DNA of 64,000 nucleotides from Bdellovibrionales bacterium (GTDB taxonomy: Bacteria > Bdellovibrionota > Bdellovibrionia > Bdellovibrionales > UBA1609), in the NCBI GenBank assembly GCA_965219095.1, contig CBDCMT010000001.1:1696001-1760000 (forward strand). Reading direction: 5' to 3'. A program made the translations under genes and the position numbers. Numbering within the stretch: position 1 is the stretch's first letter; the number at the start of each line of letters is the position of its first letter. The notes beneath the pieces are model-generated. The model was not told where the DNA came from, did not search any database, and saw nothing but the letters and a program-made list of their open reading frames with translations. Shown here in pieces: positions 31,270-44,856 of this stretch.

Positions 31270-31559
31270 ACAAGAAAAGAGGTTTACGGCATGAACTCAT
31301 AGGTATTGTAAAAAGTGATAAAATGGATAAAACCATCTCTGTTTTAGTGGAAAGAAGGGTAAAACATAAACGTTATAAGAAATATATTTTAAAAAACTCT
31401 ACCATGAAAGCTCATGATGAAAAGAATCAGGCTCAAAAAGGTGATAGAGTTTTAATTTATGAAACCAGACCTTTGAGTAAAACAAAAAGATGGAAGTTGT
31501 CAAAAGTTTTAGTAAAAGAAGAGGGAAAAAGTTATGATACAAATGCAGTCAAAGCTTAA
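31266..31559 (+). CDS. rpsQ: 30S ribosomal protein uS17
   Basis: SDKMDKTI...[11 protein letters not shown]. Confidence 0.97.
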
Positions 31560-31902
31560 AGTAGCAGACAATTCAGGAGCTAAAGTGATTCAGTGTATTA
31601 AAGTTCTAGGAGGATCTCGTCGCAGAACAGCTAAAGTGGGAGATGTTATTGTTGTATCTGTGAAAAAGACTTTTTCAAAGCCAAAAGTCAAAAAAGGTAC
31701 TATTCAAAAAGCTGTGATTGTAAGAACGATTCACAAAATCAACCGATCTGATGGAAGCCATATTCGTTTTGATGAAAACTCGGCAGTTTTGATCAATAAT
31801 CAAAATGAGCCTATGGGAACACGTATTTTTGGTCCTGTGGCTCGAGAATTAAGAGCTAAAAAATTTATAAAAATTATTTCATTAGCTCCAGAGGTTTTAT
31901 AA
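31534..31902 (+). CDS. rplN: 50S ribosomal protein uL14
   Basis: VADNSGAK...[12 protein letters not shown]...SLAPEVL. Confidence 0.98.
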
Positions 31903-32447
31903 TGAGAGTTTTACAAGACAGATATAAAAAAGAATTTGTACCACTTCTTATGAAGGCTTTAAAAGCTAAAAATGTTATGAAAGTACCTAAACTTTTAAAA
32001 GTAACTTTAAGTGTATCTATGGGGACAGAGGCTGTTAAAAATCCTAAAATTTTAAATGAAGTCGTCCAATCTTTAACAGCTATCAGTGGTCAAAAAGCTG
32101 TGATCACAAAAGCTAAAAAAGCAATTGCTGATTTTAAAATTAGAGAAGGAATGGCTTTAGGAGCTTGTGTGACTTTAAGGAAAGAAAAAATGTGGGCTTT
32201 TATGGAAAGGTTTATACACTTTTCTTTGCCTAGGGTTAGGGACTTTAGAGGACTTGCTCCTAAGGGCTTTGATGGACGAGGTAATTATAATATGGGATTA
32301 AAAGAGCAGTTGATTTTCCCTGAAGTGGATTATGATAAAGTGAGTAAAGTTCATGGTATGAATGTGACCTTTCACACTTCGGCAAAAACAGATGCTGAGG
32401 GAAAAGCTCTTTTAGACGTGTTAGGGCTTCCTTTTAGGAAGAAGTAA
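31902..32447 (+). CDS. rplE: 50S ribosomal protein uL5
   Basis: LPRVRDFRG...FDGRGNY...IFPEVDYDK. Confidence 0.98.
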
Positions 32448-32460
32448 AAAAGGAGAAAGA

Positions 32461-32850
32461 ATGGATACAATTGGAGATTTTTTAACACGCCTTCGCAATG
32501 CTGCTATGGCAGGACATGAAAAAGTTGATTTACCTAGCTCTAATTTAAGAGTAGGTTTAGCTGAAACTCTTGAAAAAAACGGTTATATTAAAGCATTTAA
32601 AGTTGTTGCTTATGGAGGACAAAAACTTATGCGTATTTATTTAAAATATAACAAAAAAGGACGTCCTGTCATCTCTCATATGGAAAGAGTGAGTCGATCA
32701 AGTCGTCGTGTTTATAAGAAGGCAAGTCAGTTAAAGTCCATACGTTCTGGCTATGGTCTTGCCATAATCAGTACAAACCAAGGTATATTGAGTGATAAAC
32801 AAGCCCGTGAAGAAAACGTAGGTGGTGAAGTTTTATGTTATATATGGTAA
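32461..32850 (+). CDS. rpsH: 30S ribosomal protein uS8
   Basis: DTIGDFLTRLRNA...GGEVLCYIW. Confidence 0.98.
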   Translation: MDTIGDFLTRLRNAAMAGHEKVDLPSSNLRVGLAETLEKNGYIKAFKVVAYGGQKLMRIYLKYNKKGRPVISHMERVSRSSRRVYKKASQLKSIRSGYGLAIISTNQGILSDKQAREENVGGEVLCYIW

Positions 32851-37159: not shown

Positions 37160-37531
37160 ATGCGTATTAGTGGTGTGGATTTACCAAAAGAAAAAAGAAT
37201 TGAAGTGGCTTTAACTTACATTTATGGCGTAGGTCGTTCTTTAGCCAAAGAAATCTGTAAGAAAGCTAATTTTCATGAAAAGCTAAGAACAAAAGACCTT
37301 ACTAATGAACAAGGTGTAACTTTAAGACAACTTCTTGATAAGGAGTATAGAGTTGAAGGAACCTTAAGACGTGAGATGGGTTTATCTATTAAGCGACTTA
37401 TGGACTTGAATTGTTATCGTGGTATTCGTCATAGAAAAGGACTTCCTGTAAGAGGCCAAAGTACAAGACAAAATGCACGTACACGTAAAGGTCCACGTAA
37501 AACAGTAGCAAATAAGAAGAAGGCGGTTTAA
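37160..37531 (+). CDS. rpsM: 30S ribosomal protein uS13
   Basis: ALTYIYGVG...[15 protein letters not shown]. Confidence 0.98.
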
Positions 37532-37535
37532 TTTT

Positions 37536-37961
37536 ATGGTAACAAAACAACAGACGACAAAAGGTTCTTCGCAAACTAAAACTAAAAGAGTGGCTAAGAA
37601 AAAAGCTCAAAGAGCAGCCCCTCAAGGACATTGTTATATTAAAGCAAGTTTTGGCAATACAATTATAACAATCACTAATGCATCAGGATCGACTGTTTGC
37701 TGGTCGACAGCAGGAACTATGGGTTTTAAAGGAAGCCGTAAGGGAACACCTTTTGCAGCTCAAACTGCTGCAGAATCGGTAGCAAAAACAGCTGTTGCAA
37801 GAGGAGTTAAGTCTGTGGATGTTTTTGTAAAAGGACCGGGAGCTGGCCGTGAGTCTTCCATTAGAGCTTTATCTTATAATGGTTTAAAAATAACTTCTCT
37901 TCGGGATACAACGCCTATTCCTCATAACGGATGCCGCCCCCCTAAACGCAGGAGAAAATAA
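37536..37961 (+). CDS. rpsK: 30S ribosomal protein uS11
   Basis: [14 protein letters not shown]...[11 protein letters not shown]. Confidence 0.98.
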
Positions 37962-37988
37962 AACTATTAATTGAAAAGGGAGATAGCT

Positions 37989-39476
37989 ATGGAAACAAAT
38001 AACAATTTACAGCCTCATTACCATAAGGTTTGGTCGGATTTAATACAACCTAAGGACTTTCGTGTTGATCAAGACACTTTCACCCGTAAATACGGTAAAT
38101 TTATTATACAACCTCTTGAAAGAGGTTTTGGACAAACTTTAGGAAATTCATTACGAAGAGTTCTTTTAAGTTCTATGATGGGATCTGCTCCTGTGGCTGT
38201 AAAGTTTGACAACGTTGTTCATGAATTTAGTACTTTACCTGGAGTTTTAGAAGATATTACTGATGTGATTCTTAATTTGAAGGAAGTACGTTTTCAGCAA
38301 TTTGTTCCTGAGTCTGTACATTTAAGATTTTCTAAAAAAGGTCCTGGTAAATTCTTGGCAAGTGATATTCAAACTACGGATAAAATCAGTATTATCAATC
38401 CAAATAAAGTTATAGCTAACTTAGATGAAACAGGAAGTATAGAAGGAGAATTGATTCTTAATTTTGGTCGTGGCTATGAACCTTCTGAAGCTCATAAAGA
38501 TAAAGATTTTCCTGCAGGTTTTATTGCTATGGATTCTGTATATAGCCCTGTTCGCCGTGTGAACTATTCTGTACAGAACACAAGAGTAGGACAAAGAACA
38601 GATTATGATTCTTTAACTTTAGAAATTTGGACTCATGGAAATATGATCCCTCAAGAGGCTATTGCTTTAGCATCAAAAATTCTTAAAGAGCAACTTCAGG
38701 TTTTTATCACCTTTAATGAGAACACGACTTTTGGAGAAACTGAACAAGATGATTCTGAATCCGATCCTATCAATCCTATTTTCTTCAAACTTGTCGATGA
38801 ACTAGAACTCTCAGTAAGAAGTACTAATTGTTTGAAAAATGCGGACATTCGTTTTATTGGTGAACTTGTTACTCGTACAGAGATAGACATGTTAAAGACA
38901 AAGAATTTTGGTCGTAAATCTTTAAATGAAATCAAAGAAGTTCTTCAACCTATGAATCTTTTCTTAGGAATGAAAGTTCTTGGTTGGCCACCTAAAAATT
39001 GGGATCGCAAAGGCCCTCCTCCTGGTTATGAAAATAAAGAGGAGTTAAACACTCCTTTAAAAGAAATAAAAGTACCACCTACTTATGAAGGACAAGACTA
39101 TGATGAGAACGTAATGTCACCTAATAAAACTTCTTCTTCTCCTCCTCCTACGCCTCCTACTCCTACTCCTATGCCTCCTCCTCCTACTCCTACTCCTACT
39201 CCTACTCCTACTCCTCCTCCTACTCCTACTCCTATGCCTCCTACTCCTACGCCTCCTACTCCTACTCCTACTCCTACTCCTACTCCTACTCCTACTACTC
39301 CTACTCCTCCTACTCCTACTCCTACTCCTACTCCTACTCCTACTCCTCCTACTCCTCCTCCTCCTCCTATGCCTCCTACTCCTCCTCCTACTCCTACTCC
39401 TACTCCTACTCCTACTCCTACTCCTACTCCTACTCATGAAAAACAGGAGGATTCAGAAGGGGAAAATAAAGAGTGA
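37989..39476 (+). CDS. rpoA: RNA polymerase alpha subunit with Pro/Thr-repeat C-terminal tail
   Basis: PLERGFGQTLGNSLRRVLLSS, TRVGQRTDYD, LELSVRSTNCL, KNFGRKSLNEI. Confidence 0.97.
   Translation: METNNNLQPHYHKVWSDLIQPKDFRVDQDTFTRKYGKFIIQPLERGFGQTLGNSLRRVLLSSMMGSAPVAVKFDNVVHEFSTLPGVLEDITDVILNLKEVRFQQFVPESVHLRFSKKGPGKFLASDIQTTDKISIINPNKVIANLDETGSIEGELILNFGRGYEPSEAHKDKDFPAGFIAMDSVYSPVRRVNYSVQNTRVGQRTDYDSLTLEIWTHGNMIPQEAIALASKILKEQLQVFITFNENTTFGETEQDDSESDPINPIFFKLVDELELSVRSTNCLKNADIRFIGELVTRTEIDMLKTKNFGRKSLNEIKEVLQPMNLFLGMKVLGWPPKNWDRKGPPPGYENKEELNTPLKEIKVPPTYEGQDYDENVMSPNKTSSSPPPTPPTPTPMPPPPTPTPTPTPTPPPTPTPMPPTPTPPTPTPTPTPTPTPTTPTPPTPTPTPTPTPTPPTPPPPPMPPTPPPTPTPTPTPTPTPTPTHEKQEDSEGENKE
39141..39434 (+). 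repeat. In-frame CCT/ACT microsatellite (98 codons, P/T/M only)
   Basis: (CCTACT)n with CCTCCT, CCTATG and CCTACG variants. Confidence 0.97.
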
Positions 39477-39958
39477 GACATAGAATTCATAAAAAGGGCT
39501 TTCATAGAGATTCGGCACAAAGAAAGGCACTCATAAGAGGCTTAGTGTGTTCTTTAGTAGATCACAAACGTATAAAAACCACCTTAGCTAAGGCTAAAGA
39601 GCTTCGCCGTCATGTAGAAAAGGCAGTGACTTTAAGTCGCAAAGGAGGAGTTCATGTCCATCGAGTTCTTCTTTCAAAATATCCTCATAAACCCACAGTG
39701 AAATCTTTAGTTAATGAAATAGGACCGCAAATGAAAGATCGTCCAGGAGGCTACACCCGTATTTTAAAGTTAGGAAGAAGACAAGGAGATCAAGCTCCTA
39801 TGGCTATAATTGAATTTGTTAACTATAAACAAGAAAAGCCTGCAGAGCTTTCTCGTACAGAGAAAAAGAACCAAGAAAGGAAAAAAATCTTAAAGAAAAA
39901 GGAAAAAAGACGATCTGTGCGAGAAATGAAAGAGTTATCTCGCAAAATTAATAGATAA
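39473..39958 (+). CDS. rplQ: 50S ribosomal protein bL17
   Basis: MRHR...IKTTLAKAKE...RPGGYTRI. Confidence 0.97.
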   Translation: MRHRIHKKGFHRDSAQRKALIRGLVCSLVDHKRIKTTLAKAKELRRHVEKAVTLSRKGGVHVHRVLLSKYPHKPTVKSLVNEIGPQMKDRPGGYTRILKLGRRQGDQAPMAIIEFVNYKQEKPAELSRTEKKNQERKKILKKKEKRRSVREMKELSRKINR

Positions 39959-40687: not shown

Positions 40688-42194
40688 GGCTCCTCCCGGG
40701 AATCTGTGGGTGAAAAGTAGTAGAAATCCCCCAAAAGAGCTCATATTAATCAAAGTAAGAGTAAGACATTCTATCTTGTATTTTTGAGTTCTTTGAGGCC
40801 TTTACTGGCCTCTATCACCTCCGGTGATTGAACTCAAAAACATTCATTTATTTGCTGTATTACATTAAAATTTTAAAAAAGAAGCACCTACTTCCCAGAT
40901 GCCTTAAAATGTTATTCAAAAAAAAAAAAAGGAGGGAAGAGATGCTTTTGAAGACTATACTAAATGATTGTTTAAGATGGAAGTCTTTTGTATACGGAGA
41001 CATTTATTTTTCAAAAGATAGAAAGTCAATTAATGTTCCTATTAAGGCTCGTAAAAATGGCCAAGCTTTTTGTAGTGTTTGTAAGAAGCCCTGTTCAGTG
41101 TATGACAGCAGTAAATCATCACGGGACTTTGAATCCCTTCCTATTTTAAGTTACAGGGTGTTTTTTGTTTATTTTGTAAGAAGAGTTAATTGTCCTTGCT
41201 GTGGGGTAAAAGTTGAGTATTTACCTTGGGCCGATGGTAAGAAGAGTTTAACGATCTTTTACATGAAGTACTTAGCAGACTGGTGTCGTCACCTGTCTTG
41301 GAAAGAGGTTTCTTGTAAGTTTCATGTCAGTTGGAATCAGGTCTATGCTTCGGTAGAATGGGTCGTAGAATATGGTTTAAAACAAAGGGTTTTAAAGGGA
41401 ATACAAGCTATAGGTGTAGATGAAATACAATGGAAAAAGAACCATCAGTATCTCACCTTAGTCTATGAAATAAGCAAAGAAAGTGTTCGTTTGCTATGGA
41501 TAGGAGAAAAAAAACAGAAAAGAGTTTTAGAAAATTCTTTGATTTACTAGGAGAGAAGTCAAAAGAGATACGGTTTGTGTGCTCTGATATGTGGAAGCCT
41601 TATTTAAAAGTCATAAAGGAGAGGGCAAGTCAAGCTTTGAATATATTAGATCGGTTTCATATCGTAGCAAGACTCAATAAGGCTTTAGACGAAGTGAGAG
41701 CTTCAGAACACAAAAAAATGAAAGAAGATGGGTATGAACCCCTTTTAACAAAAGCTAGATGGCCCTTGTTAAAAAATGCAGAAAATTTAAAATCTTATGA
41801 AAAAGTAAAATTAAGGCATTTAATACAGTACAATTTAAAAAGTATCCGCTGTTATCTTTTAAAAGAAGACTTCCGACAGTTATGGACCTATGTTTCACCA
41901 ACTTGGGCTGGTAAATTTATAGACAGTTGGACGAGACGAGTCATGCTTTCAAAAATTGAACCTATGAAAAGAGAAGCAAAAACCATACGAAGACATAAGC
42001 TACTTATTCTTAATTACTTCAAGGCTAAAAAAACCTTCTCCTCAGGGATTGTAGAGGGTTTAAACAACAAAGTAAAACTCACTATGAGAAAATCTTACGG
42101 CTTTAGAACCTCTAAAGCTATAAAAATCGCCTTATATCATAACCTTGGAAAACTGCCAGAACCTCCGGGAACCCACAGATTCTTTTGAGGAGGC
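40688..42194 (+). mobile_element. ISL3-family element, full length; transposase (ATG 40942) frameshifted near the A-run at ~41510
   Basis: TIRs GGCTCCTCCCGGGAATCTGTGGGT / ACCCACAGATTCTTTTGAGGAGGC; Zn finger, IGVDE, CSDMW, DRFH. Confidence 0.95.
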
Positions 42195-42528
42195 TAATAA
42201 AATTAACAACTTAGCCGTCACTGTCTATCTTAAAATTTCCTGAAAGTTCTCTAAGGTTCCTTCATTTTTTACTCTGAACTCACTCTAAACAAACTAAGTA
42301 TGTGACAAGTTACTTGTAGTTTTATAAGAGCTTAGCTTTTGTACTTACTTTTGAAAGCCAGGATTTAATTGTTGTATTATCTCTAGCGACATCCTTTCTG
42401 GTACTTTCTTATTTTCTTATTTTCTTGTTTTTACAGTAGATTAGCAAAGGATGTCGCAGTGAGGCCGTTTGAAAGAAATTCTCTTAAAATCACTTGAAAA
42501 GAAAGTTTTTTTATATTATTACAACCGT

Positions 42529-43228
42529 ATGCCTTTTAAAAAAACCCAATCATTCAATTCCTAAAGCTGTATGGGCTTCGATTCAAGCTGTTGCTAAAGA
42601 AACTCAAGAACTGGCAAAGTCTCAAAAAGAGAATGCCAAAGCTCAAAAAGAGACTGACCGCCAACTCAAAGAATCTCAACAAGAAATCGCTAAAGCCCAC
42701 AAAGAAACAGAGCGTTTGTTAAAAGAGTCAAAACTTGAGACCGATCTTCAGTTTAGAAAGTCTGATAAACGTATAGCAAAGTTAGACGAACTTTTCACAG
42801 GTCAATGGGGAAAGCTTATGGAGGCTCTGGCAAAAGGTGATTTAGTTAAACTTCTTCAAGAAAGAAATATTGAAGTACAGAGAATTCTTCCAGAGTCTTT
42901 TGGGACATGGAATGGGAAACCTTTTGAATTTGACATTATTGCAGTTAATGGCAGTGAAGTAGTTGTGACAGAAGTCAAAACCACCTTACGTATAAGAGAC
43001 TTAACTCATTTTTTAAAAAAGCTAGCAGATTTTAAAAAAATGTTTCCTGAATATAAAGACAAAAAAATCTACGGTGCTGTAGCTTATCTTAAATCCAATC
43101 AAAGTTCAGCTAGAAAGGCTGAGAAAGAAGGTCTTTTTGTGATTCGAGTTGTAGGGAACAGTGCTAGTATTATAAATCTCAAAGGCTTTAAACCAAAAAA
43201 CTTTAGTAATACCAATTCCAAAAAATAA
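42529..43228 (+). CDS. Coiled-coil plus PD-(D/E)xK nuclease-fold protein (DUF3782-like); ATG is out of frame with the body
   Basis: QKETDRQLKE heptads; WGKLMEAL; EFDIIAVNG...EVKTTL; YGAVAY. Confidence 0.7.
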
Positions 43229-43861: not shown

Positions 43862-44856
43862 CTAAGGACAACTAATAGTTTCTTTTGAAGTTAGGGCATT
43901 CACAGCATCAATAACAATATAAGGTTCGTTTTGAAGTGATTTTGTAAAAAAAGTTATTTGCTGATTATTATTTTTTCTTGAACATAAATAATCAATAGCT
44001 CTGGCTGCTATTTCTAATTCAGAAATATATTCTCCTTCTAGAGTTACAAGAGAAGCCACATCTTTTGCATTTAAAATAGCTTGTTTTGCATTTAAAATAG
44101 CTTGTTTTGCTTCTTCATCGTTGTTTCCAAATAAATTTTGAGTACTACTGAACAGCCCTGCAGAAGGACCATTTTCACTACTTTCATGAAAAGAATCACC
44201 TACTCCTTCAACTCCTTCTTCTGCAACTTTTGCTGTTCTCTCACTTGTTGATTTGAATGTATTACCTACTCCTTCAACTCCTTCTTCTGCAACTTTTGCT
44301 GTTCTCTCACTTGTTGATTTGAATGTATTACCTACTCCTTCAACTCCTTCTTCTGCAACTTTTGCTGTTCTCTCACTTGTTGATTTGAATGTATTACCTA
44401 CTCCTTCAACTCCTTCTTCTGCAACTTTTGCTGTTCTCTCACTTGTTGATTTGAATGTATTACCTACTCCTTCAACTCCTTCTTCTGCAACTTTTGCTGT
44501 TCTCTCACTTGTTGATTTGAATGTATTACCTACTCCTTCAACTCCTTCTTCTGCAACTTTTGCTGTTCTCTCACTTGTTGATTTGAATGTATTACCTACT
44601 CCTTCAACTCCTTCTGCAACTTTTCTGCAACTTTTGCTGTTCTCTCACTTGTTGATTTGAATGTATTACCTACTCCTTCAACTCCTTCTTCTGCAACTTT
44701 TGCTGTTCTCTCACTTGTTGATTTGAATGTATTACTTACTCTTTTTGCTTGTACAGCTCCCATGCCTTCTCTTGTTCTTTTTTCTTCAGTTGTTGAACCT
44801 GCTTGAACATGAAATGACAAAAGCAAGCCAGTCACTAATACGATGGTTTTTTTCAT
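43862..44856 (-). pseudogene. Exported protein with 22-aa tandem repeats and DUF2388-like C-terminus; frameshifted in one repeat
   Basis: Signal peptide MKKTIVL...VQA; AGGAGG SD; repeat EEGVEGVGNTFKSTSERTAKVA; C-terminus ILNAKDVASLVTLEGEYISELEIAA. Confidence 0.7.
44199..44735. repeat. 66-bp tandem repeat, 8 units
   Basis: Units start at 44201, 44267, 44333, 44399, 44465, 44531, 44597 (74 bp variant) and 44671. Confidence 0.96.

Follow-up and report, generated by a model that had tools for sequence, protein, structure and literature searches.

The window (the whole stretch of DNA that was analysed, 64,000 nt) includes a ribosomal protein operon with the gene order rpsM-rpsK-rpoA-rplQ, in which the RNA polymerase alpha subunit is encoded by rpoA, flanked by rpsK and rplQ as expected of a bacterial RpoA (Table 1). 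In the following, G000 denotes the genome under study (3.1 Mb in two contigs, 34% GC; assembly 94% complete), other G numbers denote its relatives, and P0003 and P0123 are the nearest RpoA proteins. Three Pfam domains were matched above their cut-offs, RNA_pol_L over residues 41-236, RNA_pol_A_bac over 71-186 and RNA_pol_A_CTD over 258-320 (PF01193, PF01000 and PF03118), and the gene is a bona fide bacterial rpoA by every membership test. As in canonical RpoA, whose solved full-length chains measure 305-368 aa (E. coli, 329 aa; 7ye1_A, the best match, 338 aa), the NTD, linker and CTD could be aligned with the solved chains up to the WPP motif, which occupies residues 333-335. The alphaCTD retained the residues equivalent to E. 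coli R265, N268, C269, G296, K298, S299 and W321 in the alignment to E. coli chains, and these were invariant among the relatives aligned; we take the first six to be the DNA-contact residues of the E. coli alphaCTD.

Table 1. Coordinates of the features discussed, numbered from the first letter of the window.
Feature	Position	Strand	Basis or remark
uL3 N-terminal charged extension, ~92 aa	26485..26760	+	alignment with relatives
uL22 C-terminal extension, 73 aa	29779..30000	+	unseen in 33 other genomes with uL22
rpoA, RNA polymerase alpha subunit, 495 aa	37989..39476	+	ATG 37989 to TGA 39476; single copy in genome
alphaCTD to WPP motif, residues 258-335	38760..38993	+	Pfam and alignment to solved chains
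Proximal tail segment, 13 aa, KNWDRKGPPPGYE	38994..39032	+	12/13 identical to P0003/P0123
Non-repetitive stretch, predicted disordered, with terminal NCT codon run (ACT TCT TCT TCT)	39033..39140	+	sequence, predicted structure
Pro/Thr microsatellite, 98 codons	39141..39434	+	TRF, codon count
Acidic end HEKQEDSEGENKE and stop codon	39435..39476	+	sequence
rplQ (bL17, 161 aa), GTG start 39473 overlapping the rpoA stop (GTGA)	39473..39958	+	ORF, Pfam

The initial annotation had described a continuation of RpoA for about 160 aa past a normal alphaCTD, and this was borne out: 160 residues follow WPP, 98 of them microsatellite, with all three domains intact, whereas the corresponding stretch is ~6 residues long in E. 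coli, mostly 16 (range 16-59) at named Bdellovibrio loci and 25 in the median relative bearing an ABC-F protein. The same annotation had reported a 294-nt, 98-residue tract built almost only of CCT and ACT codons, an acidic end whose stop overlaps the rplQ start, and a preserved frame. Codon counts agreed with it (58 CCT, 35 ACT, 3 ATG and 2 ACG), the overlap was as described, and the tract is a multiple of three within a single 495-aa ORF. An AlphaFold run with a 50-sequence alignment predicted the usual NTD and CTD and zero helix or strand beyond residue 322, with pLDDT falling from 88 in the block 331-340 to 73 in the block 341-350. The tail, within which no Pfam match was found, is predicted to be disordered and lies beyond all conserved domains. 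At the end of the gene, an SD-like AAGGGG (39457-39462) sits 10 nt upstream of the rplQ start and may serve rplQ as its ribosome-binding site; the C-terminal length of bL17 is ordinary for the order. Elsewhere in the operon there was no rplX (uL24) between uL14 and uL5, no rpsN between uL5 and uS8 (31534-32850) and no rpsD ahead of rpoA (37536-37989). PF17136 (uL24) was found in none of the five Bdellovibrionales genomes tested and in 10 of 14 controls.

At the DNA level, the tract was reported by TRF as a repeat of period 6 with 48.5 copies (score 367), and it is the sole run of at least eight such codons in the 3.1-Mb genome. Overall, CCT accounts for 64.5% of proline codons and ACT for 36.7% of threonine codons in the genome, against which the homogeneity of the tract has p ~9e-12 (Pro) and ~2e-13 (Thr), values that overstate the true surprise in that the rpoA core itself favours the same codons more than the genome does (15/17 and 11/21). 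Such uniformity indicates that the tract is a DNA repeat rather than an old protein linker. It encodes 11 runs of at least two prolines, the longest of five, and its other two reading frames would give poly-Leu and Ser/Tyr. The NCT codon run at the end of the preceding stretch is the likely seed of the repeat. A phase-variable contingency microsatellite was also considered and is unlikely: changes of its 3- and 6-nt units, located 3' of all domains, would not turn the frame or expression on and off. Loss of mismatch repair was likewise rejected as a cause. Both mutS and mutL are intact in G000, so no repair defect accounts for the slippage, and of the six long-tailed genomes first sampled G017 alone lacks the two genes.

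The best named matches were Bdellovibrionales at ~60% identity (at most 62% in the genome scan). No close strains with other tract lengths were found, as the metagenome scan gave relatives at 47-56% and the genome scan at no more than 62%. The nearest proteins, P0003 and P0123, are 66% identical to the RpoA of G000, and they have a tail of 75 aa that shares with G000 the start (12 of the first 13 residues) and the acidic end and lacks the Pro/Thr tract; the tail is therefore older than the tract. When relatives' RpoA were aligned, a check suggested in the initial annotation, the tract proved private to G000. P0003 and P0123 differ from each other at 5 of 334 core positions, while their 75-aa tails differ at 10 positions and by one indel. 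From this comparison the tail appears to evolve ~10 times faster than the RpoA core, and only the first 13-16 tail residues look constrained.

Long tails were observed elsewhere in the order. Among 40 relatives, 38 had a complete RpoA (G012, with no full match, and G020, at a contig end, were left out), and their tails measured 219 aa in G031, 172 in G016, 136 in G017, 88 in G006, 66 in G002, 62 in G024 and 7-50 in the others; a wider draw added G057 (211 aa), G043 (98 aa) and G064 (64 aa). Within genera the length differed 2-3 fold (219 vs 98; 211 vs 64). Composition was diverse: proline makes up 41% of the tail in G000 and Asp/Glu 33% in G017, the tails of G017, G031, G043, G006 and G002 are acidic, G016 carries PKPDVLGPST repeats and G057 G/Q/Y repeats. 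Furthermore, several long tails contain young DNA repeats of their own, namely a 30-nt unit x7.5 at 95% in G016, a 156-nt unit x2.1 at 94% in G031 and a further 27-nt unit x5.6 at 94%. In a FastTree phylogeny of 25 concatenated proteins, from which the tails were excluded, G000 was sister to G002, G016 and G017 (support 97-100), G031/G043 and G057/G064 formed separate clades, and tails of at least 60 aa needed five changes on the 51-genome tree. Long tails of unrelated chemistry recur in at least three clades of Bdellovibrionales, and the number of origins is approximate, because G000, G006 and G017 are biased in composition and FastTree can join such branches. A long tail is also dispensable, since G021, G042 and G050 are equally reduced genomes with tails of only 7-9 aa. 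As a separate observation, the RpoA of G057 (L267) ends in a G/Q/Y-rich repeat tail which presumably resembles prion-like low-complexity domains, and its congener G064 has the 64-aa tail.

G000 is a reduced core swollen by mobile DNA: it contains 69 near-full ISL3 copies of at least 1000 nt and 9 response regulators, compared with 15-85 response regulators in 32 of 40 relatives and 3-15 in the long-tailed genomes. FliG was absent from G000 and was found in none of the five reduced genomes tested. The gene content suggests that the G000 lineage may be host-associated. Small genome size alone was tried as a predictor of tail length and was weak (rho -0.41); G021 is 1.2 Mb with a 7-aa tail and G000 is 3.1 Mb.

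Taken together, it is rather probable that the tract expanded by slippage in a pre-existing, unconstrained tail and was tolerated under drift, the first of the origins offered in the initial annotation. Codon homogeneity, the absence of the tract from the nearest RpoA, the unrelated repeats in other lineages, and 69 ISL3 copies alongside 9 response regulators all favour it. The short ancestral tail of a normal, single-copy alpha would have gained a Pro/Thr DNA microsatellite by likely recent replication slippage, the patch of NCT codons seeding hexamer slippage together with larger block duplications. Selection may have been limited to frame and solubility, so that the Pro/Thr frame was kept over poly-Leu or Ser/Tyr, and it may still preserve the first 13 tail residues together with the acidic end, which could double as the rplQ ribosome-binding site. 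Weak selection could tolerate the tract in view of the predicted disorder of the tail and its position beyond every conserved domain, and drift in a possibly host-restricted, non-motile and regulator-poor lineage would let a costly, slow-to-translate tail persist. The losses of ABC-F, YebC and EF-P modification (see below) would then be marks of the same erosion and not the cause of the tail.

Several points count against this reading. Reduced genomes usually lose sequence, and with mutS and mutL intact slippage has no repair defect behind it. Of 25 operon proteins, C-terminal lengthening in long-tailed genomes was limited to RpoA, plus uL22 (+73) in G000 alone, and the frames of uS2 and bS6, long in every relative, showed no extra length in the long-tailed genomes. 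In an orthologue comparison that sampled ~420-440 kb per genome, only 2 of 68 orthologues (RpoA and uL22) were at least 30 aa longer at the C-terminus in G000 than in G003; against G016, 6 of 158 were longer and 5 of 158 shorter. Genome-wide protein bloat was accordingly rejected, the median C-terminal difference being 0 in both comparisons (68 and 158 pairs). Growth that recurs at a single site could reflect selection just as well as a hotspot, and the most Pro-Pro-rich of the ORFs of at least 150 aa should be costly in G000. In addition, disruption of ribosomal protein extensions in M. pneumoniae was reported to affect fitness (10.1101/2021.12.18.473270).

A possible but doubtful alternative is that a long disordered tail is selected for generic physics, as a solubility bristle, a spacer or a source of weak multivalent contacts, on proteins that are abundant and critical for assembly where drift has damaged the proteome, so that length and disorder matter and the sequence does not. 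The same two sites, the RpoA C-terminus and the uL3 N-terminus, grow in at least three clades: the uL3 extension is ~54-98 aa in long-tailed genomes and at most ~41 aa in the others compared, with the exception of G021 and G120, where it is also long despite short RpoA tails. Most of the reduced relatives have a long uL3 extension. Net charge was negative (-4 to -43) in all seven profiled G-genome tails of at least 62 aa. In the literature, terminal low-complexity regions of ribosomal proteins have been argued to be functional (Ntountoumi 2019, PMC6821194; Xue et al., 10.1101/2021.12.18.473270). In the genome-reduced M. pneumoniae, 11 of 52 ribosomal proteins, including uL22, are extended (10.1101/2021.12.18.473270). 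The RpoA tail resembles such extensions in being terminal, predicted disordered and of low complexity on an abundant, essential subunit; however, those described in the two works are mostly Ala/Glu- or Lys-rich, while the tail of G000 is Pro/Thr and belongs to RNA polymerase. RpoA does not seem to rank with the ten commonest bacterial annotations given in Table 1 of Ntountoumi 2019 (PMC6821194). Against selection for generic physics, G021, G042 and G050 are as reduced and have tails of 7-9 aa, length varies 2-3 fold within genera, and Pro/Thr and G/Q/Y chemistries are too unlike to behave alike.

The tail also bears on polyproline translation. RpoA is the most Pro-Pro-rich ORF among those of at least 150 aa in G000 (14 runs, the next having 7), and its tail contains 13 XPPX runs, the kind of motif that the EF-P/Uup-YfmR/YebC network resolves (PMC12856214, PMC11162784, PMC11611912). 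Of this network only EF-P was found in G000, encoded by one efp gene (C1:243069-243626; loci L144 and L185), whose presence the initial annotation had proposed to check. The EF-P d3 loop contacts the E-site codon through G144-D145-T146 (E. coli 144-GDT-146) (PMC12856214, PMC11611912). In G000 the d3 loop I reads SDLSQKSIT instead of TDPGxKG[ND]T, the motif being lost in 1 of 30 aligned EF-Ps, that of G000 only, and the activation loop reads PGKGN, not the proline-braced PGKGP. With TIGR00462, 37 of 40 relatives showed both LysRS and a presumed EpmA, and G000 showed LysRS alone; EpmA of G002 likewise matched only LysRS in G000 by tblastn. EpmB, present in 3 of 5 genomes tested, was not found in G000 or G006, and yebC, found in 37 of 41 genomes, was not found in G000. 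When ABC-F, YebC and EpmB of relatives were searched against G000 by tblastn, neither an orthologue nor a remnant was detected; EarP gave no match in G000, and the control genomes were equally silent. Although the assembly is 94% complete, it is unlikely that the absences of epmA, epmB, yebC and ABC-F are due to gaps alone, because four unlinked absences coincide with a matching change in EF-P. From its gene content, then, G000 seems to be without most of the factors that aid ribosomes on proline runs. The EF-P-dependent control that the initial annotation had entertained is therefore not supported: XPPX motifs and efp are there, but the activation route was not found and the d3 loop I is eroded, which makes control through EF-P modification improbable. 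Other proteins with PPP persist in G000 (22 of 1269 long ORFs). A purge of Pro-Pro from the proteome is no more than possible: losses exceeded gains (41 vs 22 against G016; 14 vs 9 against G003), but proline as such is 8-12% scarcer, and for PxP, taken as the control, the figures were 36 vs 30 and 17 vs 12, respectively. An apparent second polyproline gene at C2:594 kb was rejected as an antisense frame of a glycine-rich gene. In G016, yebC (L226, C1:1136771-1136935) lies in a frame of 180 aa, matches the profile at only 55 of its 160 positions and is possibly decaying.

A second rival builds on these losses. It holds that in lineages without ABC-F a hard-to-translate rpoA end (poly-Pro in G000, poly-acidic elsewhere) slows or aborts the last codons and so tunes the output of alpha and the coupled bL17, which we consider improbable. 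Six of 41 genomes gave no ABC-F match (PF12848), and in the first 39 genomes the six without it had exactly the six longest RpoA tails. A sample of 146 genomes from across the order yielded 142 with an RpoA match, 111 of them new; with frames taken from stop to stop, a few of them cut by contig ends, RpoA frames of at least 400 aa were seen in 7 of the 10 genomes that lack ABC-F and in 0 of the 132 that have it (3 of 6 and 0 of 105 among the new genomes). Moreover, E. coli ABC-F proteins rescue poly-Pro and poly-acidic sequences (PMC11162784), tmRNA and SmpB are present in G000 (tmRNA by Rfam; missed by ARAGORN), and the rpoA stop overlaps the rplQ start. On the other side, three genomes devoid of ABC-F, G042, G050 and G128, carry short tails (9, 8 and 23 aa), G024 combines ABC-F with 62 aa, and only five independent pairs are available (sign test p 0.125-0.25). 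The loss of ABC-F is accompanied by few response regulators (3-13), and lifestyle is a confounder because that loss co-occurs with loss of regulators and flagella. In addition, the G/Q/Y tail of G057 is not a known stall type. As for the coupling to bL17 translation proposed in the initial annotation, the overlap is real, but among the other long-tailed genomes examined only G002 and G017 share it, and rplQ is separated from rpoA in G016, G031, G006, G043, G057 and G064. It is unlikely that Bdellovibrionales losing ABC-F repeatedly grow a hard-to-translate alpha tail as a built-in brake on alpha and bL17. G000 would be the extreme case, in which neither ABC-F nor YebC, but only an unmodified EF-P with an eroded loop, helps to make the most polyproline-rich protein. 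Were this true of G000, its ribosome would be tolerant of proline runs or an unknown rescue factor would exist.

It is very unlikely that the tract was inflated by assembly error or that the tail is missing from the mature alpha through stalling or proteolysis. The region was found in four runs of one study, as contigs throughout, and these runs are possibly the assembly's own source. In run X1, contig one matched 37500-39120 with 0 differences and had 90 extra letters toward the tract; contig two matched from 39444 with 0 differences and had 38 extra letters before it, which places its beginning at 39406. This is the last of the k=31 branch points that the assembled tract predicts, and contig one would stop at 39210, another of them (the first being 39204). 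Public contigs thus appear to enter the tract from both sides, but in these four runs, with repeat letters skipped in the comparison, none spans it. On the point of spanning reads raised in the initial annotation, the contigs indirectly support the presence of the repeat, and 294 nt is its length as assembled. The full-length RpoA was absent from a 15-billion-protein collection under either of two starts, unlike bL17 and uL22 of the same contig, and no RNA run was among the runs matching the region. Against an error stand the contigs terminating within the tract, one of them at a predicted branch point, the flanks without differences, a length divisible by three, a return into an acidic end like that of the nearest RpoA, and ACG and ATG interruptions that recur in block context, unlike sequencing noise.

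Pro/Thr linkers, (PT)n, that are extended and disordered typify secreted glycanases, and a tract of the same composition led to the least credible reading, a specific Pro/Thr tether or phosphorylated repeat code (glycanase linker- or Pol II CTD-like), possibly under EF-P control: efp is present and the tail has 38 Ser/Thr-Pro motifs in G000 and 9 in G016, yet other long tails have 0-2, P0003/P0123 lack the tract, nothing folded follows it, Pro/Thr chemistry is not kept in relatives and the EF-P modifying enzymes were not found. The tether that the initial annotation had suggested gained no support. A glycanase linker joins two folded domains of a secreted protein, whereas RpoA of G000 has neither a secretion signal nor a second folded domain (no structure after residue 322 and no Pfam match in the tail) and its tract is recent and private, so an interdomain linker of this type was rejected. 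A repeat code like that of the Pol II CTD is very unlikely as well, the repeat consensus not being conserved across relatives.

A literature search with little coverage of subscription journals returned no description of a repeat tail on RpoA, although the supplements of PMC6821194 may list RpoA low-complexity regions. What is new here is the order-wide pattern of tails, the association of that pattern with ABC-F loss, and the erosion of the polyproline rescue system. In reduced bacteria, repeats have grown again and again at the C-terminus of this essential RNA polymerase subunit, and expansion by slippage under drift is the preferred reading. The natural panel of tails (Pro/Thr, acidic and G/Q/Y; 8-219 aa) could be used to ask if such extensions are neutral or useful. 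G000 itself, whose RpoA has 14 proline runs and whose rescue system appears to have decayed, is a direct test case for the bacterial need of modified EF-P, ABC-F and YebC.

Further repeats and mobile DNA were observed close to the operon and elsewhere in the genome. An ISL3 transposase in two overlapping frames lies just behind the operon (40828-42188). It is followed by a protein (42494-43228) with a coiled coil and a PD-(D/E)XK-like part (Hjc hit), which contains 21-nt repeats and has 11 copies in the genome. On the minus strand at 44198-44856, a gene with a signal-peptide-like start carries a 66-nt (22-aa) repeat x8.1 and is frameshifted inside the array (period 140 = 66+66+8). At G000:C1:622122-623597 there is a CRISPR-like array with a 72-nt period, a 37-nt repeat, variable spacers and apparent spacer duplications.
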